Positions 201 through 56,990 are shown, counted from the first letter of the stretch. The stretch is 64,000 nucleotides of DNA from Mustelus asterias (GCF_964213995.1 NC_135805.1:74214001-74278000), one strand, 5' to 3'. Translations and numbers: made by a program. The notes: generated from the letters alone by a model not told the origin.

Positions 201-1303
201 ACAATGTTAGCACCCTATTTATCTCCAATTGTTGGTGATGTGAGCAGGGCATCTGGGACCTTAATGAGCAGTGGGACCAGCAGGATATCTCCATGACCAA
301 TTAAATTTAAGGATTGGGGGAAGAAAAGAGACTAGACAATGAAGAAGGGTGAGCTATAAAGGGTGTATTCTATGCCAAATCAAATACAGAAAGATAAGAG
401 ATGGAAAGGAAGATTGGTCGAAAAGATAGGGGGGAAAAAAAGAGATGAAGGAAAAGCAAGGGATTTTTAAAATTGCATTTTAAAATCTTCAATAAGTTGG
501 TACCTAGGGATTACCAAAAAGATTCTGAAGGAATGAGACTCTCCAGTTTATTTTAATATTCATTTCGGGTCAAGAGAGGCTGATTGGTAGTCATTAACAA
601 TTATCACATTGTTAAAAGGGTACTTGCACTGAATTACGAGACTTAACCTCCTTTAAGTTTAATAGGTACTGAATGCTAGAGAATTCATTAAACTGATGTA
701 AAGGTTAATGATCCTGTTTTCAAAAAATTGAAGGAGAGTTGCAAATCATCAGATGCTTGTGATTTGCAATTCAGAGGGTACTGTTCCTCCAACAAGTAGC
801 TAGTTGCTTGTATTTTTGGAATGTGTCCACACTTTTTTCAGTAAATTCTAGCCCATGTTGTTTAATAAAAACCTTTGCAGCCTTAAGGGGATATGCAATA
901 CACTTTGCTAGCTGATGCCTTGTGTTTTATATAGTATAGTTTTGCTGGCTTTCTTAAGTAGTGCACCCTATGAATTTCCATTTGCACATAAAAAAAGAAA
1001 ATGCATGTTTATAGCATCTTTCTCAACCTCGATGGCCCAAAGTAATCCGTACCCCAAGAATTACCTTTTGAAGTATGGGTATGGTAGTTACATAGGCAGC
1101 TAATTTGCACTCAGCAAAGTCATCAGTGAGACAAATGGCCAATTAATCTGGTTTAGTGGTTGACGGATAAGTTAACCAAGAACTTCCTTGCTGCTACTTC
1201 AAATAGTCATGATGTGGAGATGCCGGCGTTGGACTGGGGTAAGCACAGTAAGAAGTCTCACAACACCAGGTTAAAGTCCAACAGGTTTATTTGGTAGCAA
1301 ATA

Positions 1304-1340
1304 CCATAAGCTTTCGGAGCACAGCTCCTTCGTCAGATGG
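1304..1340 (-). ncRNA. Minimal hammerhead ribozyme motif in Penelope pLTR
   Basis: rc: CCAU CUGACGA A GGAGC UGU GCUCC GAA AGCU U AUGG. Confidence 0.8.
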
Positions 1341-2196
1341 AGTGGTTATCTGTTCTCAAACAGTGCAAACAGACACAGAAATCAAATTACAGAATACTGA
1401 TTAGAATGCAAATCTGTACAGCCAGCCAGGTCTTAAATGTACAGACAATGTGGGTGGAGGGAGCATTCAACACAGGTTAAAGAGATGTGTATTGTCTCCA
1501 GACAGAACAGCTGGTGAAATTCTGCAAGCCCAGGAGGCAAGCTGTGGGGGTTACTGATAATGTGACATAAATCCAACATCCCGGTTTAGGCCATCCTCAT
1601 GTGTGCGGAACTTGGCTATCAGTTTCTGCTCAGCGACTCTGCGCTGTCGTGTGTCGTGAAGACCGCCTTGGAGAACGCTTACCTGAAGATCCAAGGCTGA
1701 ATGCCCGTGACTGCTGACGTGCTCCCCCACAGGAAGAGAACAGTCTTGCCTGGTGATTGTCGAGCGGTGTTCATTCATCCGTTGTCGTAGCGTCTGCATG
1801 GTTTCCCCAATGTACCATGCCTCGGGACATCCTTTCTTGCAGCGTATCAGGTAGACAACGTTGGCCGAGTTGCAAGAGTAGGTACCGTGTACCTGGTAGA
1901 TGGTGTTCTCACGTGAGATGATGGCATCCGTGTTGATGATCCGGCACGTCTTGCAGAGGTTGCTGTGGCAGGGTTGTGTGGTGTCGTGGTCACTGTTCTC
2001 CTGAAGGCTGGGTAGTTTGCTGCGAACAATGGCCTGTTTGAGGTTGCGTGGTTGTTTGAAGGCAAGAAGTGGGGGTGTGGGGATGGCATTGTCTGTACAT
2101 TTAAGATCTGGCTGGCTGTAGAGATTTGCATTCTAATCAGTATTCTGTAATTTGATTTCTGTGTCTGTTTGCACTGTTTGAGAACAGATAACCACT

Positions 2197-2233
2197 CCAT
2201 CTGACGAAGGAGCTGTGCTCCGAAAGCTTATAG
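2197..2233 (+). ncRNA. Minimal hammerhead ribozyme motif (one stem I mismatch)
   Basis: ccat ctgacga a ggagc tgt gctcc gaa agct t atag. Confidence 0.72.
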
Positions 2234-2574
2234 TATTTGCTACCAAATAAACCTGTTGGACTTTAACCTGGTGTTGTGAGACTTCTTACTCTACTTCAAA
2301 TAGTGCCATGAAATGATTCACATCCAGCTGAATAGGACAGGTTTATTAATTTGTCTGAAAGATTGCATCTCTTGACTATGTAAAATTTTCTCAATTAGTC
2401 TAGATTATGTGGTCAAGTTTCATAGTGGAGTTTGAACTCAAGACCTCCAAGATAAAGGTGCTACTGCCAACCTGTAGTCACACTTGTTCTTTAGCAGGGT
2501 CACAATCTGCTTCATACCATTCTGGGGCACTGCCCCTCCCTCCAGCAAAGATATTGATGTTTTTGCAGATGCTT

Positions 2575-4285
2575 TGGGGAGTCAGGAAGCGAGTTACTCA
2601 CTGCAGTGTTCCTAGCACCTGACCTGCTGTTGTGGCCACAGTGTTTAATGTGGCGAGTCCAGTCGAGTTTCTGGTCAATGGTAACCCCAAGGATATTGAC
2701 AGTGGGGGATTCAGTGATAGTAACACCATTGAATGTCAAGGGGCAGTGGTTAGAGTGTCTCTTATTAGTGATGGTCATTGCCTGGTATTTGTGTGGTGCA
2801 AATGTTACTTGTCAGCCCAAACCTGGATATTGTCCAGATCTTGCTGCATTTGAACATGGACTTCAGTATCTGAGGAGTCGCGAATGGTGCTGAACATTGT
2901 GCAATCATCGACGAACATCCCCACTTCTGACCTTATGACGGAGGGAAGGTCATTGATGAAGCAGCTGAAGATGGTTGGGCATGGGACACTACCCTGAGGA
3001 ACTCCTGCAAATATGTCCTGGAGCTGAGATGACTGACCCTCCACAACCATCTTCGTATGTGCCAGGTATGACTCCAACCAGCGGAGAGTTTGCCCCCTGA
3101 TACCCATTGATTCTAGTTTTGCTCTGGCTTCTTGATGCCACACTCAGTCGAATGTGGCCTTGATGTCAAGGGCTGCCACTCTCATCTTACCTCTGGAATT
3201 CAGCTCTTCTGTCCATGTTTGAGCCAAGGCTATCATGAGGTCAGGGGCTGAGTGACCCTGGCGAAACCCAAACTGGGTGTTGCTGTTTGATAACACTGTT
3301 GATGACCCCTTCCATCACTTTATTGATGATCGCGTGCAGGCTGATGGGGCGGTAACTGGCCAGGTTGGATTTGTCCTGCTTTTTGTTATACAGGACACAC
3401 CTGGGCTGCTTTTTACATTATCGGGTAGATGCCAGTGTTGTAATTGTACTGGAAAAGCTTGGCTAGGGGAACAGCAAGTTCTGGAGCGCAAGTCTTCAGT
3501 ACTATTTTTGGAATGTTATCAGGGCCCATTGCCTTTGCAGTATCCAGTGCCTCCAACTGTTTCTTGATATCACGTGGAGTGAATAAAATTGGCTGGAGAC
3601 TGACATCTGATATTCTGGGGACCACAGGAGCAGGCTAAGATGGATCATCCACTTGGGACTTCTGGCTGAAGATTGCTGCGAATACTTCAGCCTTATCTTT
3701 TGCACTGATGTGCTGGGCTCCTCCCTCATTGAGGATGGGGATATTGTAGAGCCTCCTCCTCCAGTGAGTTGTTTAATTGTCCTCCACCATTCATGCCTGG
3801 ATGTGGCAGGACTAGAGCTTGAATCTGATCCGTTGGTTGTGGGATCATTTAATTTTGTCTATCTCCTGCTGTTTGGCATGCAGGTAGTCCTGTTTGGTAA
3901 CTTCATCAGATTGACACCTCATTTTTAGGTATGCTTGGTGCTGCTCCTGGCATGCCCTCCTGAACTCTCCATTGAACCAGGATTGATCTCCTGGCTTGAT
4001 GGTAATGGTTAAGTGGGGGATATGCTGGGCCAGGAGTTGCAGATTGTGCTGGAGTACAATTCTGCTGTTGATGGCCCACAGCGCCTCATGGATGCCCAGT
4101 CTTGAGTTGCTAGATCGGTTCGACGTCTGTCCCATTTAGCATGGTGATAGTGCTACACAACACGATGGAGGTTATTCTCAATGTGAAGGCGGGACTTTGT
4201 CTCCACAAGGACTGCGCAGTAGTCACTCTTACCGATACTGTCATGGACAGACGCACCTGCAGCCAGCAGATTGGTAAGGATGAGG
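2575..4285 (-). mobile_element. Degraded non-LTR retrotransposon (CR1/L2 group) ORF2 fragment
   Basis: GVPQGSVPCPTIFSCFINDLP...MFVDD and KAMGPDNIP in broken frames. Confidence 0.88.
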
Positions 4286-4303
4286 CTGGTAAGATTAGCA
4301 CTG

Positions 4304-4504
4304 TAAGAAGTTTAACAACACCAGGTTAAAGTCCAACAGGTTTATTTGGTAGTTAAAGCCATACAAGCTTTCGGAGCCCCAAGGGGCTTGGGGCTCCGAA
4401 AGCTTGTGTGGCTTTTGCTACCAAATAAACCTGTTGGACTTTAACCTGGTGTTGTTAAACTTCTTACTGTGTTTACCCCAGTCCAACGCCGGCATCTCCA
4501 CATC
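4304..4504 (+). mobile_element. Penelope-like copy B: miniature fold-back
   Basis: Near-perfect palindrome centred ~4385; TSD aagattagcactg (4291-4303, 4505-4517). Confidence 0.9.
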
Positions 4505-6073
4505 AAGATTAGCACTGACAGGGCCCTGCACAGCTGTGTCCCTGGGGGCTATAATCACCTCAGAGCCCTAGCATGGTCATCGCAGTTGTTTTCCATTTTG
4601 GAAGCCAGTAGTGATTTCTGGACATTTGATGGCCCCAGAACCAATTTAAAAATATTATAATATATTCAAATTGGTGGTAATGATCCTGATTACGTTGCCA
4701 GCAGGGAGTGGCGAAGATCTCCAAACTGTTATGGCCTCCTCGCAAGAGTTAGCAGCCATAACGAGTTTGGGTCTGCGACAAACGGGCCCAAACTGGTTAT
4801 GGCCTGTTTCTCTATTCATTTATAGAACAGGAAGGGGTTGTTTTGGTGCCCTGGCCAACATTTATCCAGCAATCAACACCACCAAAATCATACTAATTGA
4901 TCACTTAATTTATTTGTAGAACCTTGTCTGCAAGCAACCTTGTGCTTTTGCATAATGGTCACTAAACTAAAAGTAATTCACTGGCTATGAAACATGCATC
5001 AAGAGGATGTAAAAGGCCTTCAAATTCAAGATTATTTCTTTATAGCAGGAATTCAGACCAGGGACTTTAAAGACGAAACCTGTGGGAGTATCTTAAATAA
5101 TACACGTTTCAACTTTTGAAATATGCAGGAAATGATGCACAGAAACTGGCCACTTTCCAATTCATGTTTTAACTCCGTTGTAGGAATTTACTTTCTAGAG
5201 AGCTAAGTTTGCTCAAGGTTGCAGTGGTACATTTGCGGGTTTAAAAGAAATAAGTACTTAGTTTAAAGTGCTGTGGAATTACTTTTAGTTAAATCATTCA
5301 AGGTGAGAATACCTGGTGATATACACCAATGAATTTGCATTTTTTTGTTACTGCATGAAGACATGAAACAACTTGTATAGTACTGGGAATAGCTGGTCGA
5401 TAGCATTTACTTTGGTGCCCAAAGTCTCTTCATATAACCAATTCGTTATAGGGCAGAAAACTGACTGAGAGTTGAGCAAACGTAACCAACTTTTACGAGC
5501 ACAAACTGAACAAGAGTCAGTCGAAAGCAACAAGAAGCTAACATACAAATTGGAGGTTGATGCCTTTTAAATAGTGTTGGTAATGTGTTTAACAGAGGGT
5601 GTTACAGTGAGTGGCAAGATCAAAACAGGGCGTTGGGGCATTAAATCAGCATTGGACATTGACCAATGTCATAATCTAACTGTTCTCTGATTGGAAGATG
5701 CTATTTTTCACCTAACCACCACCGTATTTTGCAACCATGTACCTTAACTACTATTAAATAAATTCAGATTTAAATGCAACACTGGTTTTGCCAAAATTAA
5801 TGGCTTTAGTTGACTTATCAGGTTGCTTTGGTTTATTCTTCAAAATTGTAAATTCATTTTAGGAGATAGGCACGGAAGATAGATTTAGAAAATGTAAAAT
5901 CTAACTGAGATGAGTATTCATTTGAATAGAATTATTTTATATTTCATTTATTTATTTGAATATAAAGTTGCATGCAAATGATAAAACTTGAAAGGAGTGA
6001 TATGTTTAACTTTTGGTAAAATAAAAGCATGGTCCCACTTTTCCCGTTCCTCTGAGACTTTCGGTGTTCAGCC

Positions 6074-14720: not shown

Positions 14721-15770
14721 AAGGAAGGATGTTAAAGCCCTAGAGAGTGTGCAAAGGAGATTTACTAGAATGATGCCAAGAATGAGGAATTTTAGATACA
14801 AGGAAAGATTAGAGAAATTGGGCTTATTCTCCTTGGAGCAGAGAGGATTAAGAGGTGACTTTATTGAGGTATTCAAAATTATAATCTCTTAGCCAACTTC
14901 TAATTTATCATTTCTCTAATCTTTCCTTGTATCTAAAATTCCTCATTCCTAGCATCATTCTAGTAAATCTGCTTTGCACTCTCTAGGGCTTTAACATCCT
15001 TCCTTAAATACAGTGCCCAGAACTGAACACAATACTCCAAATATTGTCTGACCAATGATTTGTAGAGGTGTAGCATCACTCTGTTGCTTTTTTACTCTAT
15101 GCCTCTACTAATAGAATCCCTACAGTGCAGGTATGGCCATTCAGCCCATTGAGTCTACTCGACTTTCTGACAGAGCATCTTACCTAGGCCCACTCCCCTG
15201 CTTTCCCTGTAACCCTACATATTTACCCTGCTAACCCCTACACATCTTTGGACACTAAGGGGCAATTTAGCATGGCCAATTCACCTAACCTAATCTTTGG
15301 ACTTTGGGAGGAAACCGGAGCACCCAGAAGAAACCCATGCAGACATGGGGAGAACACGTAAGCTCCGCACTCAGTCACCCAAGGCCGGAATCAAGCCCGG
15401 GTCCCTGACACTGTGAGGCAGCAGTGCGAATCACTGACAGGGTAAAGAAGGATATTCTGTTTCCACTAGTTGGTGTGTCAGTGACGAGAGTCACAATTTC
15501 AAGAAGGTCAACAAGAGAACTAGGAGTGAGATGAGAAGAAACTTCTTTACTCAGAGTTGTTGGGATTTGGAATATATTGCCTGGGAGTGTGGTGGAGGCA
15601 GATTCTGTAGGGGGTTTCAAAAGAGAGCTAGATACATATTTAAAAGTGATGAATTTAGAGGGCTGCAGAGATGGGGCTGCAGACTGGGAAGCTGGGTAGC
15701 TCTTTTGAGAGCTGGTGCAGACACAATGGGCTTAGAATGGTTCCTTCTGTGCTGTAAAATTCTATGGTTC
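14721..15770. mobile_element. Rearranged CR1 3' fragment with internal inversion-duplication, plus - strand SINE (15112-15432)
   Basis: 14721-14818 is inverted at 14910-15005; RRNFFTQ motif and ttctatggttctat tail at ~15530-15772. Confidence 0.8.
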
Positions 15771-15778
15771 TATAAGAG

Positions 15779-15916
15779 ATGATGTGGCGATGCTGGCGTT
15801 GGACTGTGGTAAACACAGTAAGAGTTTTAACAACACCAGGTTAAAGTCCAACAGATTTATTTGGTAGCAAATGCCATTAGCTAATGGACTTTAACCTGGT
15901 GTTGTTAAAACTCTTG
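15779..15916 (-). mobile_element. Penelope-like copy C: miniature fold-back
   Basis: Same terminal sequence in both orientations; flanking duplication tctataagagatga (15769-15782, 15917-15930, partly overlapping the terminus). Confidence 0.85.
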
Positions 15917-16189
15917 TCTATAAGAGATGAACAGCTTCACGTCTAAGTGGGCCACCTAGTGGAAAATAGTATGAACACATCATGATCAGAAATGCCCCAT
16001 AAAGTGGTGGTTCTGTGTTACAACTAGCACAGGCACAATGTGTATGTTAAGGTATTGTAATGCTATGAATCGTGGCTAATTCATGCACTGATTTGGAATA
16101 ATTCATCTATTCAATTTTACATTGGTAATATTAAAATCATTAGATTTTAGTGGATATTGTTACAATTGTACAATTGGAGTGGTCTATTT

Positions 16190-18470: not shown

Positions 18471-19381
18471 TTATGTATACAATGGCTCGTCCCAACAAGG
18501 CCAAAATGGTCTCATGTGTTCGCAGACATGCTGAACTGAAGCAGGCCAACCTTAATAAGAGTTTTCCACAGTTTTCTAGTGTGCAACCTTTCAACATTTC
18601 TTCTTGCAGCTGTTGTCAATTGTGTTGCACAATATGTACCAGATCAACTAACCGACTTGCATTCTCCTGCAAGCATAATGAGAAATTCCCTTGAACCTAC
18701 AAATTTTTTGAAACCTGAATATTTTGATAGGTCATGAATGAAGGTGACGGGGGTAGTTTCTGAGGTTGATCTGTTTTGCAATGTCTGATTAATTCCACTG
18801 ATGGTCACTAGTTTGAGGTCATGACATACTGGCAGACCTGTGATTACCATCCAGCACTATGTCACCTGCACATGGAATTAGTGAACTGGTGTAGGCTGAA
18901 AGTTTTACAGTAGCAGATTCCACTATGACACTCCATGTCTGCGGATACATGCCTTATACAATTTACCATGTAGTATGGTGGCAATTTCCCGTGTCAACCT
19001 TGACCATAAGGAGTAGTTATTAACTTTCTTAGGCAGGTAATTTAAATCTTGGCAAATACTCTGGACGTGTGATGGCATGTACATTTTCCATGAGATTGAT
19101 GGTGTAAAAATGTATTCACTGCCTTTGCTGTTTTGTCAATCACCTCGTGTACCTCTTTCTGACGGGATACCAGATGTTATTATTGCTTGAAGGTACCCAT
19201 GTTGTACGATCTGTTTGGACCAGTGCATGGCTCTTTGTAGCTACATCAGTCTTTGCTTCAGTTCACTGCCATGGCTCTTTCTGTCACATGCTTTGCAGAA
19301 TTGCTGGAAAGCTGGCCATTCCTTCTCCGTAAGAAGTCTCACAACAGGTTAAAGTCCAACAGGTTTATTTGGTAGCGAATA

Positions 19382-19418
19382 CCATAAGCTTTCGGAGCGC
19401 TGCTCCTTCGTCAGACGG
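19382..19418 (-). ncRNA. Minimal hammerhead ribozyme motif
   Basis: rc: ccgt ctgacga a ggagc agc gctcc gaa agct t atgg. Confidence 0.77.
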
Positions 19419-21476
19419 AGTGGAAATCTGCTCTCAAACAGTGCACAGAGACACAAAATCAAGTTACAGAATACTGATTAGAATGCGAATCCCTAAAGCC
19501 AGCCAGGTCTTAAAGGTACAGACAATGTGGGTGGAGGGAGCATTAAACACAGGTTAAAGAGATATGCATTGTCTCCCGACAGAACAGCTAGTGAGATTCT
19601 GCAAGCCCAGGAGGCAAGCTGTGGGGGTTACTGATAATGTGACATGAATCCAACATCCCGGTTTAGGCCGTCCTCATGTGTGTGGAACTTGGCTATCAGT
19701 TTCTGCTCAGCGACTCTGCGCTGTCGTGTGGCGTGAAGGCCGCCTTGGAGAACGCTTACGTGAAGATCCAAGGCTGAATGCCCGTGACTGCTGAAGTGCT
19801 CCCCCACAGGAAGAGAACAGTCTTGCCTGTGATTGTCGACCGGTGTTCATTCATCCGTTGTCGTAGCGTCTGCATGGTTTCCCCAATGTACCATGCCTCG
19901 GGACATCCTTTCCTGCAGCGTATCAGGTAGACAATGTTGGCCGAGTTGCAAGAGTAGGTACCGTGTACCTGGTATATGGTGTTCTCACGTGAGATGATGG
20001 CATCCGTGTCGATGATCCGGCACGTCTTGCAGAGTTGCTGTGGCAGGGTTGTGTGGTGTCGTGGTCACTGTTCTCCTGAAGGCTGCGTAGTTTGCTGCGG
20101 ACAATGGTCTGTTTGAGGTTGCGTGGTTGTTTGAAGGCAAGAAGTGGGGGTGTGGGGATGGCCTTGGGGAAATGTTCGTCTTCATCAATGACATGTTGAA
20201 AGCGATGATATTTTCTTCCTTTGGAGTCATGGTGAGCAATCACTGAAACAACTATATGATGACAGCAACAAGTTCCATCCCACCAACAGACTCACCATGG
20301 ACTACTCTCCAGAATCGGTTGCATTCTTGGACACACGCATCTCTATTAAGGACGGTCACCTCAGCACCTCACTGTACCGCAAGCCCACGGATAACCTCAT
20401 GATGCTCCACTTCTCCAGCTTCCACCCGAAACACGTTAAAGAAGCCATCCCCTACGGACAAGCCCTCCGAATACACAGCATCTGCTCGGATGAGGAGGAT
20501 CGCAACAGACACCTTCAGACGCTGAAAGATACCCTCATAAGAACAGGATATGGCGCTCGACTCATCGATCAACAGTTCCGACGTGCCACAGCAAAAAAAC
20601 CGCACCAACCTCCTCAGAAGACAAACACGGGACACGGTGGACAGAGTACCCTTCGTCGTCCAGTACTTCCCCGGAGCGGAGAAGCTACGGCATCTCCTCC
20701 GGAGCCTTCAACATGTCATTGATGAAGACGATCATCTTGCCAAGGCCACTTCTTGCCTTCAAACAACCACGCAAACTCAAACAGACCATTGTCCGCAGCA
20801 AACTACCCAGCCTTCAGGAGAACAGTGACCACGACACCACACAACCCTGCCACAGCAACCGCTGCAAGACGTGCCGGATCATCGACACGGATGCCATCAT
20901 CTCACGTGAGAACACCATCTACCAGGTACACGGTACCTACTCTTGCAACTCGGCCAACATTATCTACCTGATACGCTGCAGGAAAGGATGTCCTGAGGCA
21001 TGGTACATTGGGGAAACCATGAAGACGCTACGACAACGGATGAATGAACACCGGTCGACAATCACCAGGCAAGACTGTTCTCTTCCTGTGGGGGAGCACT
21101 TCAGTAGTCACGGGCATTCAGCCTTGGATCGTCATGTAAGCGCTCTCCAAGGCGGCCTTCACGACACACGACAGCGCAGAGTCGCTGAGCAGAAACTGAT
21201 AGCCAAGTTCCGCACACATGAGGACAGCCTAAACCGGGATGTTGGATTTATGTCACATTATCAGTAACCCCCACAGCTTGCCTCCTGGGCTTGCAGAATC
21301 TCACTAGCTGTTCTGTCTGGAGACAATACACATCTCTTTAACCTGTGTTTAATGCTCCCTCCACCCACATTGTCTGTACCTTTAAGACCTGGCTAGCTTT
21401 AGGGATTCGCATTCTAATCAGTATTCTGTAACTTGATTTTGTGTCTCTGTGCACTGTTTGAGAGCAGATTTCCACT

Positions 21477-21513
21477 CCATCTGACGAAGGAGCAGCGCTC
21501 CGAAAGCTTATGG
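21477..21513 (+). ncRNA. Minimal hammerhead ribozyme motif
   Basis: ccat ctgacga a ggagc agc gctcc gaa agct t atgg. Confidence 0.8.
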
Positions 21514-23219
21514 TACTTGCTACCAAATAAACCTGTTGGACTTTAACCTGGTGTTGTGAGACTTCTTACTGTGTTCACCCCAATCCAACGCCGGCATCTC
21601 CACATCATTCCTTCTCCCACAGTAACTGGGATGAAAGTCGCTGCAGCTGTTTTCACACTTTTCTAAAGCTCCACCTGTTACAATTTTAACCTTCTCTGGC
21701 CTGATTTCTATGTCAGTTTTGTTTGTCTTTTTGACCACGTCCTGGTCACTCGCCTTTCCTGACTGATGCTGGTCCTCTCGATGTACTGTCCTCCTCACCA
21801 TAAGGGATTTATCTGCTAACCGTTATTTTTAAATTTGAGCACTCTATCTGCATTGTGTCTTCAAAGCCTTTTTGTGCAGTCACCACGTTGCGTTTCAACA
21901 TTCTCCACCGCTGCAGCTTCCTTGCGATCTGATCAAAACATCGAGGGTTGTCTAATTCCATATAGCATAATCTAAGACAATTTACTATGTTGTACCTGTA
22001 CTTAATCTTGCTGTCAGGCTAAACAATATGTCATTTAGAAGGAACCACTGCTGCACAGCATGTCATGTATGTTATAAATGATATAGAGGCACAATCATTC
22101 ATAAGGGATTGTGCAAACACGTTATAGGTTCAGTGATTAAGAACCTGCACATGTGAACAGCAATGAATGGATAGAAAGCTTGAGAGCATCAGAGGTTTGT
22201 GTCTCTGACCTGCTCCAGGCCAAAGTGAAATTGAGGCTGGATCACGTGACAGAGTTTCCTAAATGGTGGCATGCTGCTATCCCTTAAATGCATAGTACAA
22301 CAAGAGGGACTGCGTGAAATGTAAATAGAATGGTAGCAGTGTGCAAGGAAAGGTGAATGAGAAGTGCATGAGACGAATGCAATGAAAATGAAATTTATAC
22401 AAAAGAGAATGGATAGAGATGTGAAAAGATTTGAAATATGCAAATGATTGAGACGAGATAGTGAAACCAACAAGTGAATGTACAAAAGGCACAGGGTAGG
22501 ATTTAATTGCAGCAATGTGGATGCCAGCATTGGACCCAGACCAACAACCTTCATCTCCCAGAACAACAACTTCCATGTCCCAGGTCTGTGGGCATATGGT
22601 TTCATCCAAGGAGAGGTTTGTGACCCTCAGGGAGACCCTTCAGTGGCTGTCGACTATGGGCCCAGATCTGCAAACCATCAATTTGAAAATGAGCTCTATG
22701 CAGCAGTGGTCAGAGGGGCATAAGAGAGTGGCGAGATGCCTGGACTGCCCTCTAGGTGCCCCGCCATCTCCATTAGACAGAGTTGGTATTGCATATCAAG
22801 AGCAAGGGAGAGGGTGGTGGAGGAGCAACAATCTGCCATCTCTGGGGCTCCTCTCAAAGTGCTCTGAGGGTGTACAGGCACTTCACAGCACCTCTGCCAG
22901 TGACCTGACCACTTCCAGTAGCTGTGATCACAGAGGAGGCAGCTACACATGTGCAGAAGAGTCTCAGTGTGCCTGGGCCCTCTAGGTCTCAGGTATCTAA
23001 AGGACAGCTGCCAAATTCATTTCAGGCCATGGGGCATTGCGATCAATAGCCTGCCTCCACCTCGGCTCCAGATCTCAAGGCCACACTTTGACGGAGCATT
23101 TGGAAATGATTAAGAAAAAGCACTTAGAGCCCCCCCCCAGGGTGGTGGGGGTGTTTACATTTTAAAAGTTACAAATTGGTCTTTGTGTGTCATCAATTCA
23201 GTTAAAGTTAATTTGTTAG

Positions 23220-23477: not shown

Positions 23478-23950
23478 CCTGTGTTGCAGCATTTATTGCT
23501 TTATTCTATTAGATGTCTTCTCACTTGCAGACTGAATCTTTGGACATGTATCTGCCTGTTTGTATGGGGAAAAACGTAGTCCTGCCCTCTTCACTGATGC
23601 AGCAATGAGCTTGGGGAGGCTCAACAATGGACACTAAGTACTACATATGATGAAATGCTGGGGTGACATGGCCTGGTGGTCTCAGTTCAAGGCGCTTGTC
23701 TGCAGCTAGCAGCTGTGAATGAGGTTGTCTCAAGCCTCCCAAACACATCTAAGGTCCTTGCCTCTGGTGTAGGCAGCTCATCCAACTTTCCTCCTTGCTC
23801 TATATCCTCCGCCACATATTTGGATGAGCACTTGAAATATCATAATATTCAAGGATATGGGCCGTGCAGGAAAATGGGACTATCTACCATTAGTGGTAGA
23901 TATTGTCAGTGCAAATTCGATGGGCTGAAGGGCCATGACTCTTTACTCTA

Positions 23951-24449
23951 TGACGTGGAGATGCTGGCGTTGGACTAGGGTAAACACAGTAAGAAGTCTC
24001 ACAACACCAGGTTAAAGTCCAACAGGTTTATTTGGTAGCACAAGCCACTACCTTTTAGAGCGCTGCCCCTTCATCAGGTGAGTGGGATTTCAGTTCACAA
24101 ACAGGGCATATAAAGACACAAACTCAGTTTACAAAAGGATAATTAATAAGCAATAACCAATCCAGTCAAGGACACACACCGGTTTATTTAAAAAAATTCA
24201 CATATTCTGCTTCTGCTCTCATCAGCAACTCATTTCCAGGCCGGTCGGACAGCAATTACACTCTGTAATTTCAAACCCCTCCTCACCCAGTGCAGCAGAT
24301 TATGTAAATTGAGTTTGTGTCTTTATATGCCCTGTTTGTGAACTGAAATCCCACTCACCTGATGAAGGGGCAGCGCTCCGAAAGCTAGTGGCTTGTGCTA
24401 CCAAATAAACCTGTTGGACTTTAACCTGGTGTTGTGAGACTTCTTACTG
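23951..24449 (-). mobile_element. Penelope-like copy E: inverted arms enclosing captured HINT3 sequence
   Basis: Arms 23951-24133 and 24303-24449; TSD ctttactcta (23941-23950, 24451-24460); centre is the reverse complement of 25127-25316. Confidence 0.92.
24356..24390 (+). ncRNA. Minimal hammerhead ribozyme motif, variant subfamily
   Basis: cac ctgatga a ggggc agc gctcc gaa agct a gtg. Confidence 0.78.
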
Positions 24450-24890
24450 CCTTTACTCTATAACATCCTCCTCACCGGATAAGGACTGAATCTCCTCCAA
24501 ACCTTCTGGCTGACAGGCCTCAACCCTCTGCCATATTAGGTTGTGCAGCAAGCAGCAATGATCCTGGAAACTCTCCCTGGGTTAAATTGCACAGTGTCAC
24601 GGGAGTGGTATTTACTGGAATCACATTTTGTGTAGGCCAATTGTCTGTTTAATTGCTGCATGGGCTGACCTGTTGCAGGCCCTTTCCCTTTCAAAACAAA
24701 TTGAACCTGATATTTGTTGGGACAGAAATGTCCAAGTACCAATACAGGCTGAACCCTTGACTGACCCCATGCCAGTCTAATCTCTGCATTCAGACAAACT
24801 GTCATTTAGCTGACACCGGGATGGGAACAAGCGGGTCTCCACACAACAAAATATCACCAACAAACTACCACTCTGTAAACTGGGCCGCTG

Positions 24891-24984: not shown

Positions 24985-25140
24985 ATGGCGGCGACGACTG
25001 AGGTTGAGGTCCCGGCCCAGGTCCCGGCCCGAGGAGAGGGCGAGGCGGAAACTCCAGCAGCGGCCGATGCAGAGTTTGATAAGAAATGCATCTTCTGTAA
25101 AATCGGGAATAAAGAGGAGTCGGTGGATCTGCTGCACTGG
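24985..25140 (+). CDS. HINT3: HINT3 exon 1 (MAATTEVEV...FDKKCIFCKIGNKEESVDLLHW)
   Basis: Kozak gccATGg in CpG-rich island; CIFCKI motif; TGG|gtgagg donor. Confidence 0.93.
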
Positions 25141-25966
25141 GTGAGGAGGGGTTTGAAATTACAGAGTGTGATTGCTGTCACCGGCCTGGAAATGAGTTGG
25201 AGCGAGTGTTTAACCTTTCTGCGTCGTTGCTGATGAGAGAAGAAGCAGAATGTGTGAATGTTTTTTATAAACCGGCGTGTGTCCTTGACTGGATTGGTTA
25301 TTGCTTATTAATTATCAGCTGGATCTATAACAGCTGGAATGACTGGAGTTCAGGAGCAGGGAAATATTAGGGAGAGGAAAGCTGCTGTCATCATGATCAG
25401 CTCCACTAATCCAAACCAGGATAAAACATCATGCCAAAGGGTAAACTGCATTCAACTCCTGTGCATGGAGTGTGGAAGCGGATTTAACATATCTCACCGT
25501 GCGAGTCAACATTCTCAGCAACTACTCTGATAAAGCCACAGTATTGCTTACAACTGCTGGAGAGAAACCTTCAATTAACATTAGAACATTTTACAAATCA
25601 TAAGGCGACATCTCAAAAGTGTTGCTCATGGAGTGAAACATCTCAGTTCGTTACAGAGTAAATGTTGGGCATCAAGTAGAAGGAGGTAAAACACCGTCAG
25701 AGAAAGTTTATAAAAATGATTTTGAAATTGGAGTGGGGATGTAGGGATGGACCAAAAGAATAGATGCCAGTGATGGAGTAGATGGCATCCATTACACGCA
25801 CATTTGCTTTTCAAAGATGCTGCACTTTATGTGAATGCAGTGTTAAATCTCTGCTCAGTAATACACATCCTTACTTAAACCTCCTTCAGCCATGCATCCT
25901 TGCACAAGAGACTTCCTTAGTTCCTTCTTTCTCTACTCCATCATTGGTAGCAGTTCTTTAAAAAAA

Positions 25967-40258: not shown

Positions 40259-40723
40259 TCATACCAGCAGGGTGATGAGAGCGCGATCATCCCTTCCCTG
40301 CCAAAGCATTTCCCCATCAAAGTGGACCAGACCGTGTTTCCTCGCTCGCAGCAGGATCCCCACCACTTTATTGGAAATTGTCACGTAGGCATCAAACAAT
40401 CTCCCAAAAGTTACGCAAATGTTTCCATCCGGTCCGGCTTCTCCGCACCTCCTAATAATAGAAAGCAACTCTTCGACTTCTTTCCCGACCAGGGCATGTG
40501 CATCTTTGCCCCGCTGCTCGGTCTTAGTTCCCTTCTGGGGATGCCCGTAATCTTCTCCCTCTCTCTGCAGCCGCAAAGTCACCGCATGGGAGCCACTGAA
40601 AGGATTGCACCTCTGGTACTCCCGGTGGTCATCAGCCCATTCCTGCCACTTGCGCCTCAGTCTGGCTGTTCCGTCCAGTCCCGGCGCCTCTGTCACTTTC
40701 TGATTGCCTCCACTTTCTGCCAT
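40259..40723 (-). CDS. Actin-binding Rho-activating protein (ABRA/STARS)-like Costars-domain protein, single coding exon, 154 aa
   Basis: KWQEWADDHREYQRCNPFS, DYGHPQKGTKTEQRG and VTFGRLFDAYVTISNKVVGILLRARKHGLVHFDGEMLWQGRDD are ABRA C-terminal motifs; intact ORF with in-frame TAG 11 codons upstream. Confidence 0.93.
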   Translation of the reverse strand: MAESGGNQKVTEAPGLDGTARLRRKWQEWADDHREYQRCNPFSGSHAVTLRLQREGEDYGHPQKGTKTEQRGKDAHALVGKEVEELLSIIRRCGEAGPDGNICVTFGRLFDAYVTISNKVVGILLRARKHGLVHFDGEMLWQGRDDRALITLLV

Positions 40724-41654
40724 TTGTTTCCCCCAACGTAATGTTAGGATCCTCTAATCCTGCAAGGTTTTCTCGGACATGTCTTTCCCCAGAATAACCC
40801 GCAGGCTGGACAGTCGGATTCGCTTTTATCTTGTGCACCCGCGCATCTTCTGACTGACATTGGAGAGTTGCAGCTTGGTGTTGCCTTTCCAAACCCCGGG
40901 CTGCAGCCTTGGACTGAGGGTCACCGAACCAGGGCGGGATCATTATGATTGACAGTTTAATCAGCCAATAGAAGAAGACACTCCATCAGGGCACCAATGG
41001 CGAAGAACAGAGGATGGGAGTGCCTCCTGTCCATTGGACAATGTTGTCTCCCAGTCATTCTGATAGTGCTCACAATCCCGAATTGTAGATGGAATATTCG
41101 CTCTTTAGTCTACCCGCTTCTTTTGAGTTAAATTCGCAGCTCTGCTATGCTCAGGAAGTTGGCAAGATTCAAATAGATTTGAAGCAGCGAGTTAAAAGGA
41201 AAGATTAGCATTTACATCGCAGGGCCTTGCATGACCTCAGGACGTCCCAAAATGGCAATGAAGTACTTTTAAAGTGTGCTCACTGCTGTGTTATGGAAAT
41301 GAGGACACATGGGGAAACTATTGACCAATGTCAAGGACAAACCCCATTCTTATTTGGAGAAGAATGCCTGACTGGGAGACAAACAGCCGGATAGATTCAA
41401 GTCTGACTCTAACTTTATTGGGTTCTTTGAAGTTGGAGAGAGGGTTGACGAGGGATGTTGTCCATATGAACTTTTAAAAAGCATTTGATAACATACGATG
41501 TAACAGATACACAGTGGTTGATTTGATGATCAGCCATGATCATAATGAGTGGCAGAGCAGGCTCGAAGGGCCGAACAGCCTACTCCATTTCTAGTTTCTA
41601 TATACTATGAAAGGATGAAACCTGGGCAGCATATTGAACCCTTGGCAGGGAGAC

Positions 41655-47024: not shown

Positions 47025-48374
47025 TTCTGATTCTGTGCTTTGCACATTGTTGTTTTCAATATTATGTAGACTGATTTGTTTGTGGGATTTTCAGTTTATG
47101 AGCTACGTATGCTCGTGACGATTGGCTGTGCAAGTATCTGTTTCTACATCAATAGTCAGAAAAGCCTTTTGAAGAAGCATTTCAAAGTACATTAATGAAT
47201 GTGAATCAAAATTTTAAGTAATTTTTAATGGCTGTTAATGACCACCATTTTCCACAATTGGCCCATATTATTCTATACTCTGCATTCCAGGCTAAATTGC
47301 CAGCCTAATTCTTCTATCCTTGTGGCTTCACTCGTGTTCTCCCAGGTACATTTTCACCCCCTCTGCCATCATACAAAATCATTGATTCCGCCCATCTGTG
47401 AAATGAGAAACTGAATTTAAGCCAGCAGGCAAACTACTGCAGACGTTCAAAACTTGAAATAAAAGGCGAAGCAACATCAATTGAGGGTTTTAAAATCTTA
47501 TGACCTTTGGTGTCTATTTTTTCCACATTCCTCTGTGAGACTCCTTGTGACATTATTCTATGTTAAAGTTGCTATATGAATAATGTTGTTCTTACAGACG
47601 CTGAAATGTCCGGTATCAAATTTTATGCCACAACAGGACAAATAATGGAAAAAATATAGAGATCACAAACCTTCGCCTGCTTAGTCTTAGTGCATTTAGA
47701 AATGAATAGTGCTGGGTGTCCCAAGTGTCCCCAGGGATCTGCAATTCCTAGGTTTGAGTGTTGGCTCTCGGATATCCAGGGACTGCAAGGTCTGTTAAAG
47801 GGAAAGTGTTACAAAAAGGGATGGGCTGTATCTGTCTGTGTAGCAATTGCCATAAATTCTTTGGACTTATTTCATGAACCATGAGCAGTTTGTGATGATA
47901 TTTGATTTTAGAGGTGTCACAAATCATCTCTCTGTTGCATAGGATTTGTGTGTTTAATGAGACTTTTCCACCTGTTTGTCTGAGTTGGAATTTTATTGTA
48001 AGAAGTCTCACAACACCAGGCTAAAGTGTAGAAACTTGATGCCTGTGTCTGTGGAATTGTGAATGTGTCTGTGGAATTTTATTGCCAGCTCTAATTCTTG
48101 ATGCAGTTTTCACTCACTTTTTCCAGTAGATGTGTAAAGCTGTTATGAAATGTTTGAAACTTCAAAGCGCATGTTTATTGGAGACAGATGAACATAAAGG
48201 TTCAGATTATCATAATGTTAAATAAATTCTGAAAATTTTCTCGATATTAAGTTCCACTTAAGCCAGTATTAAAATTTTGATTCACATTCATTTACATATT
48301 TTGAAAAACTTCTTCAACACAACGTTGCTGATGTTCCAAGGTGATTTATTGTACAAGTATATTTTTCTTTTCAG

Positions 48375-48448: not shown

Positions 48449-48911
48449 GTAGGTGCTTCACATAATTGTAATTGATACACACGAGTTGGATAATAATATT
48501 CGCCTCTCTAATTATTTATATATTGCACTGTCTCCTGTGCTAATGGTGCCAGCCCCTGACATGTAGGAAATTCAAGAAGGAACTGGGACAGCAATTAATT
48601 TGGGGGTGCCCCTTGAAGATGTGGTTACTCCTGATCATCCTGTACCATATTTTATTGAAAAATGTGGAGAGTACATTGAATCTACACATTTGGATGTTAT
48701 GCAGATTTTCATAGAATATAATCATAGAATCCTTGCAGTGCAGAAAGAGGCCATTCGGTCCATCGAGTCTGCACCGACAACAATCTCATCCTGGCCCTAT
48801 CCCCGTAACCCCACATATTTACCCTATTATTCCCTCTAACCTACGCATCCCAGGACACTAAGGGACAATTTAGCATAGCCAATGCACCTAACCCACACAT
48901 CTTTGGACTGT

Positions 48912-50704
48912 GTTCGTCTTCATCAATGACATGTTGAAGGCTCCGGAGGAGATGCCGTAGCTTCTCCGCTCCGGGGAAGTACTGGACGACGAAGGGTACT
49001 CTGTCCACCGTGTCCCGTGTTTGTCTTCTGAGGAGGTCGGTGCGGTTTTTCGCTGTGGCGTGTCGGAACTGTCGATCGATGAGTCAAGCACCATATACTG
49101 TTCTTATGAGGGCATCTTTCAGCGTCCGGAGGTGTCTGTTGCGATCCTCGTCATCCGAGCAGATCCGGTGTATACGGAGGGCTTGTCCGTAGGGGATGGC
49201 TTCTTTAACGTGTTTAGAGTGGAAACCTGAGAAGTGGAGCATCGTGAGGTTATCCGTGGGCTTGCGGTATAGTGAGGTGCTGAGGTGACCGTCCTTAATG
49301 GAGATGTGTGTGTCCAAGAATGCAACCGATTCCGGAGAGTAGTCCATGGTGAGTCTGTTGGTGGGATGGAACTTGTTGATGTCATCATATGGTTGTTTCA
49401 GTGATTGTTCGCCATAAGTCCAAAGGAAGAAAATGTCATCGATGTATCTAGTGTATAGCCTCGGTTGAAGGTCCTGTGCGGTGAAGAAGTCTTGTTCGAA
49501 CCTGTGCACGAAGAGGTTGGCATATTGAGGTGCGAATTTGGTCCCCATGGCTGTTCCGTGTGTCTGGATGAAGAAATGGTTGTTGAAGGTGAAGACATTG
49601 TGGTCCAGGATGAAGCGGATGAGTTGTAAAATTGCATCTGGAAACTGGCAGTTGTCGGCGTTGAGTACTGAGGCAGTTGCAGAAATGCCATCATCGTGGG
49701 GGATGCTGGTGTAGAGTGCCGAGACATCCATTGTGACGAGGAGTGCTCCTGATTCAACTGCTCCGGAGAAGCTACGGCATCTCCTCCGGAGCCTTCAACA
49801 TGTCATTGATGAAGACGAATATCTCGCCAAGGCCATCCCCACACCCCCACTTCTTGCCTTCAAACAACCGCACAACCTCAAACAGACCATTGTCCGCAGC
49901 AAACTCCCCAGCCTTCAGGAGAACAGTGACCACGACACCACACAACCCTGCCACAGCAACCTCTGCAAGACGTGCCGGATCATCGACACGGATGCCATCA
50001 TCTCACGTGAGAATATCAAGTACCAGGTACACGGTACCAACTCTTGCAACTCGGCCAACGTTGTCTACCTGATACGCTGCAGGAAAGGATGTCCCGAGGC
50101 ATGGTACATTGGGGAGACCATGCAGACGCTACGACAACGGATGAATGAACACCACTCGACAATCACCAGACTGTTCTCTTCCTGTGGGGGAGCACTTCAG
50201 CGGTCACGGGCATTCAGCCTCTGATCTTCTGGTAAGCGTTCTCCAAGGTGGCCTTCACGACACACGACAGCGCAGAGTTGCTGAGCAGAAACTGATAGCC
50301 AAGTTCCGCACACATGAGGACGGCCTAAACCGGGATGTTGGGTTTATGTCACACTATCAGTAACCCCCACAGCTTGCCTGCTGGACTTTCAGAATCTCAC
50401 TGGCTGTCCTGTCTGGAGACAATACACATCTCTTTAACTTGTGCTTAATGCTCCCTCCACTCACATTGTCTGTATCTTTAAGACCTGGTTGGCTGTCGAG
50501 ATTCGCATTCTAATCAGTATTCTGTAACTTGATTTTGTGTCTCTGTGCCCTGTTTGAGAGCAGATTTCCACTCCATCTGACGAAGGAGCAGCGCTCCGAA
50601 AGCTAGTGGTGTTTGCTACCAAATAAACCTGTTGGACTTTAACCTGGTGTTCTTAGACTCCTTACTGTGTTTTCCCCAGTCTAACGCTGGCATTTCCACA
50701 TCAT
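48912..50704 (+). mobile_element. Penelope-like copy F: inverted RT segment (48912-49757, -) joined to GIY-YIG + pLTR (49759-50704, +), inserted in a SINE
   Basis: MDVSALYTSIPH, QTHGTAMGTKFAP, YTRYIDDIF on -; GIY-YIG on +; actgtg on both sides and the SINE resumes at ~50709. Confidence 0.95.
50573..50609 (+). ncRNA. Minimal hammerhead ribozyme motif
   Basis: ccat ctgacga a ggagc agc gctcc gaa agct a gtgg. Confidence 0.8.
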
Positions 50705-52591
50705 GACTACTGTGGGAGGAAACCAGAGCACCCGGAGGAAACCCACGTTTTGTTGAAAATGGGTTGTGTAGTACTCTGCATGATACTCCTGTCTGTGTAA
50801 GGTGCAAGGTTCAAACGTGGTCTTAGTGGAATATCAAAGTGGCCGCTATTATCAAAAATATGGCACCAGCATTCAGAAAAACATGTACTTGCAGAAACTC
50901 TTTGTTTATCGCAATGTCTAAGCCTAAATGACAATTTCAGTTACTTTGTTTTACTGAAATAAACAGTGAAAAATAGTTTTGCTTGTCTCCATTCCCCCTT
51001 ACATTCTTTTAACTTTTCCAAAAATCCATTAACTGCCTTCTATTCATCTGTTCATTCAGTCAGTTCATTAAAATCTCCATTAGATTCATTGAAACATGTA
51101 TTAAATTATAAATTCATATTGTTTCCCACAACTGACATTAGAGTAACTGGTCTATAATTACCAGATTTTCTCACTTCTGAACAAAGGTGTGACATCTGCT
51201 TCTCTACTGCGCTGTGTAGAGATATATTTATTTTGTATTCTGTCCATCTCGCATTGGAAGGCTTCCCACTAATCTGTTAACTTGTTTTCTAAATTTTCTT
51301 CCCATTTGATTTAGGTCAGATCGTTTTATATCTCACTGAACTCTGCTCTTTATCAGCCCAGCACCTTATCTTAAACTCATTGGCCTGCATTTTCACAAAT
51401 GGAAAATGGTGGACGAACCCTGGATCCAGAAGCCTGTTTCCGTAGCCAGCAGAAACCATTTTTGCCCGGGAGGGGGAGTGATGTTGGGACATGACTCCCA
51501 CATGTGGAAAACCCAAACTTAGCAGGGCTATTTGAACTCAATGCTGAGTTCCAACAGACCCCATTTCTGCTGGAGCAAAGGCCTTAATCCGCATTGAGTG
51601 TGTTATGAATTTTTAGAGTCGACAGATAATGTCTAGAACTGTCAAGTTATTGAATTCCATCGCTGCTTAAAAATTGAAAATAAAACTGCCTGCCTATATC
51701 TGGGAATTGAAGAAAATCTGTTCTAGCAGTTTCAAAAGCTGTTTATTATCATAATCTAAAAGGCAATCATGGTAGAATTATTACTGCTTGACTTTTCTAC
51801 AATCTATTGACAGCACAAATAGATCATTAAAGGATTAGCTGTTTTGATGTAGGGTTATAAATACATATGTTTGTTTTTATAAGGGATTAATTATTTGAAG
51901 ATGTTTGGATATATTGAATGGGCTTTCATGAATGTGAATTCTATTCATACAGTGAAATCTGTAAAATATAGTTAGAACTTTATTTTCTTTCATGTCAGCA
52001 TGGCTTCTGAGGTCTGCCCAAGGTAGATATGGGCAAATTGTATGAAGCATGTAAGGGCAAAGGGTGCTGGATGGGCTATTCTTGAATTAGCACTGAGTTG
52101 GAATAGGGGCTATGAGGGGTCATGGGATGGGCAAAGGCTAAAAACACTGTCAATAACTTTGTTAAAGAATCCTCCATCACTGCCACTATAATGTTCATGC
52201 CTCCTATTTCCCTCGGTATCATTTATTCACATAAGTATCCATTGGCCCTATGTTCTCTGCAAAGGCAGATTTGAGTTATTTCCCCTCCCTGCAGAAGCCC
52301 TGGAATTTTCAGGGTATTATAAAGGGGCATTGATCCAGGTAAGTTGATTGTTACACTCTTTGAGTGATCTTTATACCTGGAACATGAGTGTTTCCTGGGT
52401 GGGATTGTCAGGAAAATTGGCCCATTTATCTTTAAAGGAAAACGGGTTTAAGCATCGTGGCTTACAACAGACAAATGGAAGAATTGCAGTACAAGTATTT
52501 CTCCTGGTATTGCACCTTGGCCACCACATGGCAACAGCATCCATGTTTGAAGTAGTTGTTTTCGACACAACAACCCTGCTTTACTTTGCAG

Positions 52592-54423: not shown

Positions 54424-54595
54424 CAGTGGAGCCCCGTTATAACACGATGGTTGGGGTCCATAAAAGCGGGGGTCGCACTAAATCGGGGTTGCGCTAAATT
54501 TGCCAATTATTAGCAGGAAAAAAGGGTCCAATGACACCATCGCGTTTTATGCGAATTCGTGCTAAGTCGGGGCGCGTTAAATCGGGGCTCCACGG
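54424..54595. mobile_element. Tc1/mariner (pogo/Tigger-like) MITE
   Basis: TA|cagtggagccccgttataac ... gttaaatcggggctccacgg|TA; 172 bp, CpG-rich. Confidence 0.85.
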
Positions 54596-55902
54596 TATAT
54601 TGCTTTTCCTTCATTTGTTGGATCAATATCCTGATGTCACCTTCTATACCATTGTGGAAACACCAACACCACAAAGGATTGCAGTGGTTCAGAGAGAAGA
54701 CCACAATTACCTTCTCAGGGAGGGATGGGTATTATTAGAGTCTTTTCAAATCAGGGAAAGTAAAATCAAAACATCCAGCAGTCAGAGTAGGAATGTGTAA
54801 GATGCAGTCTGCTGGGAAACATGTGAGTGGAAACTTCCCTGTGGGTCAGGGAGAATGATGGGGACTGGTTAGGATGCCAGCTGGATGGAAAAGCTACATT
54901 GGCTGAGGAAAAAGTGGTAAAAGATCCTTTGACACACAAGTAAGGTTAGGATAATCTGCTGGTTATTTTACTGGACTAGTATTCCTGAGGTTGTGAGTTC
55001 AAATGCTACCATGGCAGCTTGTGATATATGTGACAATTCTTCATCAGAAAAATAATTATACAAACTTCTAGTTTGTTGGAGAAACCCAGCTGAATCATCA
55101 CCAATTGATGCAAAGGACTAGCAACATCTACCTGGCCTAGCCTACACATGTCTCCAGTCACCTGCCATGTGGTTGACTCTTGAGGCACTTGGGACAACTA
55201 GGGATGTGCAATGTCAATTTCTCCCACACCCCAAGAACAAACTAAAAGTGTTTTCAGAGGAGACAGAGAGATTCTGACGTGTTAGAACATAGAACATTAC
55301 AGCGCAGTACAGGCCCTTCGGCCCTCGATGTTGCGCCGACCAGTGGATCTAAAGCCCCTCTAATCTACACTATTCCAACATCATCCATATGTTTATCCAA
55401 TAACCATTTGAATGCTTTTAATGTTGACGAGTCCACTGCTACTGCAGTCAGGGCATTCCACGCCCTTACCACTCTCTGAGTAAAGGACCTACCTCTATTG
55501 CTGCAGAGACAATATCTAGTCTAGAATAAGCTTCCCCAAACTTAGTACAGGGATAGGCACCTTTCATCCCTGAATTTCACTGCAGAAATACTGGTTATAA
55601 TGGTTAGAATTTATTTGTTTCTTATAATCATAAAAATGGACTTTCAATGTTTTTGTCAATCTAAATAATGCTTACAGGTATTAGAAAGTTTGAATGAAGC
55701 CTGGAGCATTCCTGCAAAAGACAATGCATCAGATCCTCAATGATAAAATGCTCTAGAGAGTAAAATGATTCTCACATTACTAATGTAACTAATAGCGCAT
55801 TCACCTCATTATTGAAGTTATCAAAAAGTTAACAAAATATTAATTTTAGCTAGTGAATTGTACTGGGTGTTAATGTGGTTTTATCTTTCATCTGTTACAC
55901 AG

Positions 55903-56037
55903 AATTTAGAGTTTCTTCCCTTTCAAGGGACAGTGAACCTAAAGAATCCAGAGCATGTGTTCTGGTTGCTTGAAGACTATGGCACAGACCCGAATAATGC
56001 CCCAGAGAAGCCCTTTTCTGTTTACTTTGGAAGATGG
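55903..56037 (+). CDS. TRMT11: TRMT11 exon 6 (NLEFLPFQGTVNLKNPEHVFWLLEDYG...YFGRW)
   Basis: acacag| acceptor, TGG|gtaaga donor, 135 nt. Confidence 0.96.
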
Positions 56038-56498
56038 GTAAGATTTATAGAACACGCATCTTAAGGGAAATTGACTATTAGTTTATAATTCACCTTTTTT
56101 ATACTCCTCCCTCGCTGGGTAAATGTGCTTGTCTGAACTACAGGGTGAGTTAAACCAGAAAATGTCAAACACTTAACCCATGCCTGTATTGAGTTAGTTG
56201 ACCTCAACCAAATTGATAGTAGGATTCTTCATATGATCTTAGTTCCTGGCCTGCATGGAATCTTGCTAGGACTCCTACTGTGTGAACTATGGTTAAAAAT
56301 GCAAATAGATTGAGTCTTTTCTGTGGTCACTTCCATGATTAAGTAGCCTATGGACACTTGGGCACCAAAAAACCTACAGTGCAGTTGGGGCACTTATGCT
56401 GTTCATAATTGGAGTGGATAGAGGATAGGACAGGATCCAGTTATGTTGGTCTCGATCCTGAGTTGGGTACTATGTCCATCTGTGCTTGATGGGACTCC

Positions 56499-56654
56499 TG
56501 ATGTGGAGATGCCAGCGTTTGACTGGGGTAAACACAGTAAGAAGTCTCACAACACCAGGTTAAAGTCCAACAGGTTTATTTGGTAGCAAAAGCCACTTAG
56601 CTTTTGCTACCAAATAAACCTGTTGGACTTTAACCTGGTGTTGTGAGACTTCTT
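56499..56654 (-). mobile_element. Penelope-like copy G: miniature fold-back
   Basis: Inverted termini; tgggact on both sides (56490-56496, 56657-56663). Confidence 0.85.
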
Positions 56655-56990
56655 GTTGGGACTGCCAGGATGATATTGCCACTGGGGAAAAAAAATCCTT
56701 CCCATCCTCAGTGGTTCCCTAACACAATGTACACTTGAATAAAGCACGGTGGCACAGTGGCTAGCACTGCTGCCTTACAGTGCCAGGGAGCTGGGTTCGA
56801 TTCCCGGCTTGGGTCACTGTCTGTGAGGAGTTTGCATGTTCTCCCCGTGTCTGCCTGGGTTTCCTCCGGGTGCTCCGGTTTCCTCCCACAATCTGAAAGA
56901 CGTGCTGGTTAGGTGCATTGACCCGAACTGGCGCCAGAATGTGGCGACGAGGGGAGTTCCGCAGTAACTTCATTGCAGTGTTAATGTAAG

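Follow-up and report, generated by a model that had tools for sequence, protein, structure and literature searches.

Inverted repeats of variable size have been described in Drosophila (PMC2377424, PMC8969392), and the origin of such inverted structures, together with the one-sided tail of Penelope-like elements, is described as open (PMC8557442, PMC11167929). The mapping of both ends to two start sites of reverse transcription has already been published for an element of the Poseidon clade in vitro (PMC11167929), and a minimal hammerhead with a palindromic tetramer has been described for Penelope-like elements (PMC4209133); a further preprint (bioRxiv 2024.12.14.628481) provides context on L1 only. 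Here we describe a 64-kb stretch of Mustelus asterias DNA (NC_135805.1:74214001-74278000, hereafter the window), in which we found eight pieces (A to H) of one Penelope-like repeat family. The layout of the pieces is the known Penelope-like arrangement in a new, very abundant shark family, with exceptions inside the window, and the inverted copies show one event, one source and two end zones. The copies were parsed by hand, the scale for all end positions is the right arm of copy D, and the features are as follows.

1194-1207: left target-site duplication of copy A, 14 bp; right partner 2291-2304
1208-2090, minus strand: tailed arm of copy A, with the GIY-YIG coding end, 3' region, hammerhead motif and tail
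1551-2132, minus strand: open frame of copy A, 98% identical to a protein of Mustelus asterias and containing the CX4CxxC linker and the GIY-YIG endonuclease domain
2087-2290, plus strand: short arm of copy A; its end matches 21570
4304-4383, minus strand: short arm of copy B; 13-bp duplication 4291-4303 / 4505-4517
4381-4504, plus strand: tailed arm of copy B; junction in hammerhead stem II, 3-nt overlap
15783-15882, minus strand: tailed arm of copy C; 14-bp duplication 15769-15782 / 15917-15930
15885-15915, plus strand: short arm of copy C, 31/31 identical to its partner arm
19329-20203, minus strand: short arm of copy D; 12-bp duplication 19317-19328 / 21606-21617
20203-21605, plus strand: tailed arm of copy D, with the reverse transcriptase (RT) end, linker, endonuclease, 3' region and tail
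21481-21509, plus strand: minimal hammerhead motif of copy D, a candidate ribozyme from a pattern scan
21570-21608, plus strand: tail, running from the short-end zone at 21567-21571 to the tail-end zone at about 21604-21612
23952-24136, minus strand: tailed arm of copy E, divergent subfamily; 11-bp duplication 23941-23951 / 24451-24461
24138-24300, plus strand: 163 bp captured between the arms of copy E, copied in inverted orientation from 25127-25316 with 30 bp deleted
24300-24449, plus strand: short arm of copy E, starting within about 2 nt of the tailed-arm start
25127-25316, plus strand: source of the insert in E, putative exon 1 end and intron 1 start of a HIT-family gene
47998-48027, minus strand: H, a lone short arm of 30 bp
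48913-49763, minus strand: inverted arm of copy F, RT coding region; 3' end within the open reading frame (ORF)
49764-50708, plus strand: tailed arm of copy F; 6-bp duplication 48907-48912 / 50709-50714
56499-56604, minus strand: tailed arm of copy G; 7-bp exact duplication 56490-56496 / 56657-56663, perhaps longer and decayed
56600-56654, plus strand: short arm of copy G; junction just 3' of the hammerhead, 5-nt overlap

In copies A, B, C, D, E and G, a pair of arms lies head to head within one exact duplication of 14, 13, 14, 12, 11 and 7 bp, respectively; a matching duplication of at least 11 bp occurs in 1 of 3000 random position pairs and one of 7 bp in 0.7%. These inserts measure 134-2277 bp, the tail is present on one arm only in all six copies, and the six short ends fall at 21567-21571 (for six random ends within 38 nt to span no more than 4 nt, P = 1.3e-4). 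This confirms much of a preliminary description of the stretch, which had reported for these copies two inverted arms inside one 7-14 bp duplication, a one-sided tail, a second arm stopping within a few nucleotides of a fixed site and sizes of about 140 bp to 2.3 kb. Its claim of a single insertion event per copy likewise stands, since one duplication encloses both arms, and two chance insertions per copy were ruled out on the same ground. As a family-wide rule, the description fits the six copies it listed and does not extend to F, the second end of which is in the ORF, or to the lone arm H; because these two deviate, the rule is followed by six of the eight pieces. The bare two-arm inverted form accounts for seven of the eight pieces, and duplications are likewise found at seven. 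Copy F (48913-50708), embedded in another repeat whose sequence continues beyond it, has a tail, a 6-bp duplication (chance 2.4%) and an inverted second arm whose end is in the ORF, 5' of the short site by about 835 nt. This arm carries some 800 nt missing from the tailed arm, with which it overlaps by 56 identical nt, and copy F is a one-event inversion. For H, no partner arm was found, nor a duplication within the 3 kb searched.

Arms of the same copy resemble each other more closely than they resemble other copies, with 3/203 (A), 4/81 (B), 22/823 (D) and 5/150 (E) differences within the copy as compared to minima of 15/202, 8/67, 37/837 and 23/148, respectively, to other copies. Copy G is uninformative in this respect (0/55 within, 1/55 to E). 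Among the four long arms, all four informative sites pair the arms of D. Further, at 21054 both D arms carry G, where C accounts for 99.3% of the family depth in one run and 99.7% in a second, and at 21135 both differ from the base held by more than 99% of family depth. These base frequencies were taken from 32 rows, out of 40 of a total of 318. At 11 listed positions within both arms, the right arm of D has a base found in less than about 6% of depth in both runs; two of these rare bases are common to both arms, and the remaining nine are later changes in one arm. The shared ones support one source lineage, being blind to the distinction between one RNA and two RNAs of one locus, or between fold-back and twin priming. 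The preliminary description had argued from private variants common to the arms of a copy: the variants it named are present in both arms, those of E were rejected as private because they mark a subfamily (16-20% divergence separates E from A, D and F, the long copies), and G could not contribute. Its conclusion that both arms come from one template is upheld as one source sequence per copy, on the strength of the D variants and within-copy identity. Judged from the sequence, then, each inverted copy represents one event and one source sequence.

Similar arms would also result if separate insertions, or insertions from unrelated templates, had later been homogenised by gene conversion between the inverted repeats. 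Conversion between close inverted repeats is plausible, and the small share of family-rare bases common to both D arms is in keeping with it. Against this, one duplication surrounds both arms in 6/6 copies with the tail always on one side, and the 22 differences that D's arms retain are spread along them. We regard this origin as very improbable.

The short arm never extends further 5' than the tailed arm (6/6 copies, with 1-2 ties; 2 of 720 permutations), copy E having been entered as a tie as its starts agree to about 2 nt by eye and 5 nt by automatic alignment. The two arm starts lie within 10 nt of each other in 3-4 of the 6 copies (4-18 of 720 permutations). At the tail end, the duplication overlaps the continuation of the element by 4, 1, 4, 3, 2, 0 and 2 nt at seven sites (mean 2.3), a sum of 16 nt, where host DNA taken as random targets would give 4.9 (P = 0.0008). 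At the short end, the sum is 1 nt over six sites (4 if G is read generously) vs. 4.2 expected, a deficit that is not significant (P = 0.11), and C, E and G have single extra bases there. Of the seven junctions, three fall within the hammerhead or next to it: that of B is in stem II and those of C and G are at the palindrome, with C centred on the palindromic tetramer. The variable fold-back point of the preliminary description must be qualified to this extent, with three junctions at the hammerhead and arm starts that often nearly coincide.

To account for these features, we favour twin priming, in which two nicks would prime at two fixed sites on the RNA before end-joining, and assign it a probability of about 0.5. 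The GIY-YIG domain would nick both target strands 11-14 bp apart; one target 3' end would prime reverse transcription at the tail end, aided by 1-4 nt of pairing with the RNA, while the other would do so unpaired at the short site, some 37 nt further upstream. Since the same RNA would be copied by both, one strand would have to displace the other, and the complementary DNA (cDNA) ends would then be joined head to head via short complementary stretches, often those of the self-complementary hammerhead, or alternatively via a captured local fragment, as may have happened in copy E. Priming of the second end elsewhere on the RNA would yield an L1-like inversion such as copy F. Nick geometry, priming, displacement and joining are steps that we infer. 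Twin priming is supported by copy E, in which the arm starts coincide though foreign DNA separates the arms, and by the excess of target overlap at the tail ends. It also agrees with the Poseidon data, in which two RT start sites bound the tail, genomic ends fall on them, both strands are nicked and extended, and a dimer is predicted (PMC11167929), and with L1, where twin priming likewise yields a longer first arm and correlated arm lengths (bioRxiv 2024.08.27.596794).

A close rival, which we rank below twin priming and hold only tentatively, is fold-back, in which priming occurs once, at the tail end, the cDNA folds back to copy itself, and the new sense strand is terminated at the short site, through a stop or a cut by the endonuclease, before joining the second nick. 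Several points weigh against twin priming. The strict nesting in 6/6 copies is a direct prediction of fold-back, whereas twin priming needs the extra displacement step; displacement of the leading cDNA by the trailing polymerase before joining could produce nesting, and copy F would need no such step. The arms of D overlap by about 870 nt, the largest such overlap, far above the 22-bp median of L1 internal duplications (bioRxiv 2024.08.27.596794). The junctions of B (3-bp stem with 3-nt loop) and G (5-bp stem with 6-nt loop) fit small intramolecular hairpins. The in vitro data come from another clade, and did not include reconstitution of a full insertion (PMC11167929). Finally, all statistics, including those on nesting, overlap and junctions, derive from 6-7 hand-parsed copies in one window and were picked after looking. 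The near lack of target overlap at the short ends and their extra bases also suit fold-back, and both self-priming (PMC3846280) and endonuclease-mediated resolution (PMC8557442) have been proposed before.

On the other side, the inverted arm of F holds sequence missing from its tailed arm and therefore needed a longer template, which makes this copy impossible by fold-back. Copies A and D would require loops of 500-640 nt held on about 1 nt of pairing, the junction of C is a perfect palindrome leaving no room for a loop, and in E, once 163 foreign bases had been added, the strand would need to resume at precisely the point where the first cDNA ended. Moreover, in Poseidon the RT has a start site in vitro at the inner end of the tail (PMC11167929), and a short arm that begins at a priming site would be a copy of RNA and not a fold-back. 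The fold-back origin given in the preliminary description is a rival reading here and is excluded for F, while the single event and single source it attached to that origin are retained. It had further placed second-strand priming at a fixed internal site; the fixed end is borne out, and its combination with fold-back is not, as the two are mutually exclusive in simple form. The fixed short end is also less new than it implied, both tail ends having been mapped as RT starts for Poseidon in vitro (PMC11167929).

Two primings on two RNAs of the same locus, or on two repeats of a tandem transcript, truncated independently, would explain the shared rare variants and fixed ends without displacement, and partial tandems are the normal active form (PMC2377424, PMC8557442). 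Independent truncation is at odds with the coupling of the arm starts and with nesting in every copy, and we consider it improbable, if less so than gene conversion. Returning to twin priming, its stronger version, in which it is programmed as the default route of the family (a dimer nicking 11-14 bp apart and starting a cDNA at either end of the tail, one by pairing with the target and the other unpaired, displacement of the leading cDNA by the trailing polymerase, and joining that is often at the self-complementary hammerhead), seems to us doubtful. If true, it would explain inverted repeats, one-sided tail and nesting across Penelope-like elements by one rule.

The 163-bp insert of copy E is a reverse copy of 25127-25316, some 0.7 kb distant, and its orientation fits copying from the unspliced RNA of the HIT-family gene or from local DNA. 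Later exons of this gene match Pfam HIT/DcpS_C, the putative first exon being without a Pfam match, and copy E lies about 0.5 kb upstream of its putative start codon. Elsewhere in the element, four breakpoints fall within about 70 nt between RT and linker (20677-20746), namely the 5' ends of the A tailed, D short and F tailed arms and the 3' end of the F inverted arm; this is a possible breakpoint hot spot. At 6 of the 7 target sites (A to G; post hoc, uncorrected), C occupies the second position past the inferred nick on the strand primed at the tail end, possibly an endonuclease preference.

Beyond the window, contigs from 4 of 22 runs were aligned to 20507-21646 (50,000-110,000 contigs per run; three shark or shark-like organisms), each contig end being seen without its partner at the other end of the copy. 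Among 24 of 3710 rows, long loose ends that differ from one another accumulate at 21572-21573 (548 + 450 contigs in run X19, 535 + 508 in X13) and at 21607-21608 (770 in X19, 487 + 851 in X13). The piles fit two end zones in at least two organisms, a fit weaker than it appears: those at 21572-21573 were rejected as clean short ends as their consensus partly runs on as a variant tail unaligned to D, and none of seven short ends in the window reaches 21572. Loose ends at 21513-21523 were dismissed as 5' ends at the hammerhead, element sequence continuing there. A tail/pre-tail depth ratio of 0.23-0.39 was obtained, where a strict one-tail rule predicts 0.5; we did not rely on it, since depth summed over contigs differs from copy number. 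In the joint with most support (27 X19, 21 X1 and 5 X13 contigs), 21569 is connected to 21608 with a change of strand, such that a short end and a tail end meet tail to tail; this could reflect target re-use, insertion of the element into its short site, or a new round primed by a DNA end. Position 20796 is joined to tail ends (X19, X1) and to a short end (X13) in three organisms, which may reflect an old shared nested insertion or a preferred site. Pattern scans of viral, metagenome and genome contigs gave no copies of the family; protein scans gave no locus in viral contigs and elsewhere one distant locus at 29% identity, which was not used.

As to the identity of the family, Pfam matches were obtained to RVT_1 in copy F and to GIY-YIG (PF01541, E = 1e-4) in copy A, and the pieces in the window line up in order along residues 416-880 of a relative of 881 aa, so arranged that RT and C-terminal GIY-YIG endonuclease belong to one ORF (assembled from separate pieces), as in endonuclease-bearing (EN+) Penelope-like elements. 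No intact full ORF is found among the eight pieces, and no direct partial tandem (pseudo-long terminal repeat) precedes a full-length ORF in any of them within the 64 kb. The best-matching named proteins are from sharks, with identity up to 98%; the DKG motif upstream of the RT core is seen in relatives P0004 and P0007, in a region outside the window copies. 5' truncation, inverted repeats and a tail of 30-40 bp at one end are all present, as expected of Penelope-like elements. The CX4CxxC linker precedes the endonuclease in the copy A frame and in relatives; a CX2-5CxxC linker is a mark of Neptune and Nematis, missing from Penelope/Poseidon (PMC8557442). Having the linker, the family is a Penelope-like element outside the Penelope clade proper, and the linker's absence, diagnostic of Penelope/Poseidon, does not apply. 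By this linker we class it as of the Neptune/Nematis type, the two clades being taken together.

A minimal hammerhead motif lies about 60 nt before the short end and was seen in A, D, E and F by pattern scan. Core boxes, stem II and palindromic tetramer occur in six arms, the same loose pattern giving five unrelated matches, and Rfam gave no match to the motif. The motif has the minimal form with palindromic helix III known from terminal repeats, and we treat it as a candidate ribozyme. Folding energy of the 3' end was no better than that of shuffles (z -1.0 to +0.25), and therefore no structural claim is built on folding. In several copies, two alternative pairings are possible between the tail and sequence upstream of the short end (21540-21600), with energy no better than that of shuffles.

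The window also contains an inverted pair of a different fragment at 14721-15005, presumably long interspersed element-like, with its arms tail to tail (75 nt at 95%, 29 nt at 100%), and, at 40259-40753 on the minus strand, an open frame with a Pfam Costars domain (E = 3e-31). Some annotated shark proteins (by name septin 5a, XRCC5, USP8 and a cytochrome P450 isoform) contain pieces of the family's endonuclease, which are either exonised repeats or annotation errors.

What the window adds to published work, in 6-7 copies, is the shared rare base of D, nesting, target overlap at the tail end and the capture in E. A literature search found no tables of nesting or target overlap for Penelope-like elements, no twin priming for them and nothing on this shark family, most subscription papers, including the 2004-2006 sources of the tail concept, lying outside that search; Fig. 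S2 of PMC11167929, on genomic ends, may be relevant to novelty. The value of the family is as a test bed for the Penelope-like insertion mechanism. Nesting, target overlap per end and solitary short-ended copies are three countable features that would separate twin priming from fold-back, and since the family is very abundant, one long-read assembly would yield thousands of natural insertions.

Compared to known systems, the family resembles the EN+ Neptune/Nematis elements (PMC8557442), which share RT, CX4CxxC linker, C-terminal GIY-YIG and 5' truncation, and for which an inverted 5'-truncated copy with a 30-40 bp tail, often on a single end, is described as typical. It differs from them in that the bare inverted two-arm form dominates (7/8), the targets are not microsatellites and the 64 kb hold no direct partial tandem or full-length copy. 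Poseidon of Anolis carolinensis, studied in vitro (PMC11167929), resembles it in the two ends bounding the tail, the hammerhead just upstream and the use of both strands. It belongs, however, to a different clade and primes without homology and with an ATT preference, while the shark tail ends overlap mixed targets by 0-4 nt; inverted copies are not addressed in the available part of that study. The Penelope elements of Adineta vaga (PMC3846280) also have head-to-head repeats within one 8-10 bp duplication, a tail on one of them, junction palindromes and unrelated or host DNA captured between repeats, but they are of low copy number, and self-priming with an antisense strand as template was the explanation given for them. 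L1 twin priming (bioRxiv 2024.08.27.596794) has in common with the shark copies one duplication, an inverted 5' part, short junction complementarity, internal duplications and templated insertions, and copy F fits the L1 pattern, being the only copy with its inverted arm upstream of the first and a small overlap (56 nt). In L1, the second primer anneals at variable sites with the short median overlap given above, whereas in the shark family it is mostly one site that is used, and in A to E and G the whole short arm overlaps.

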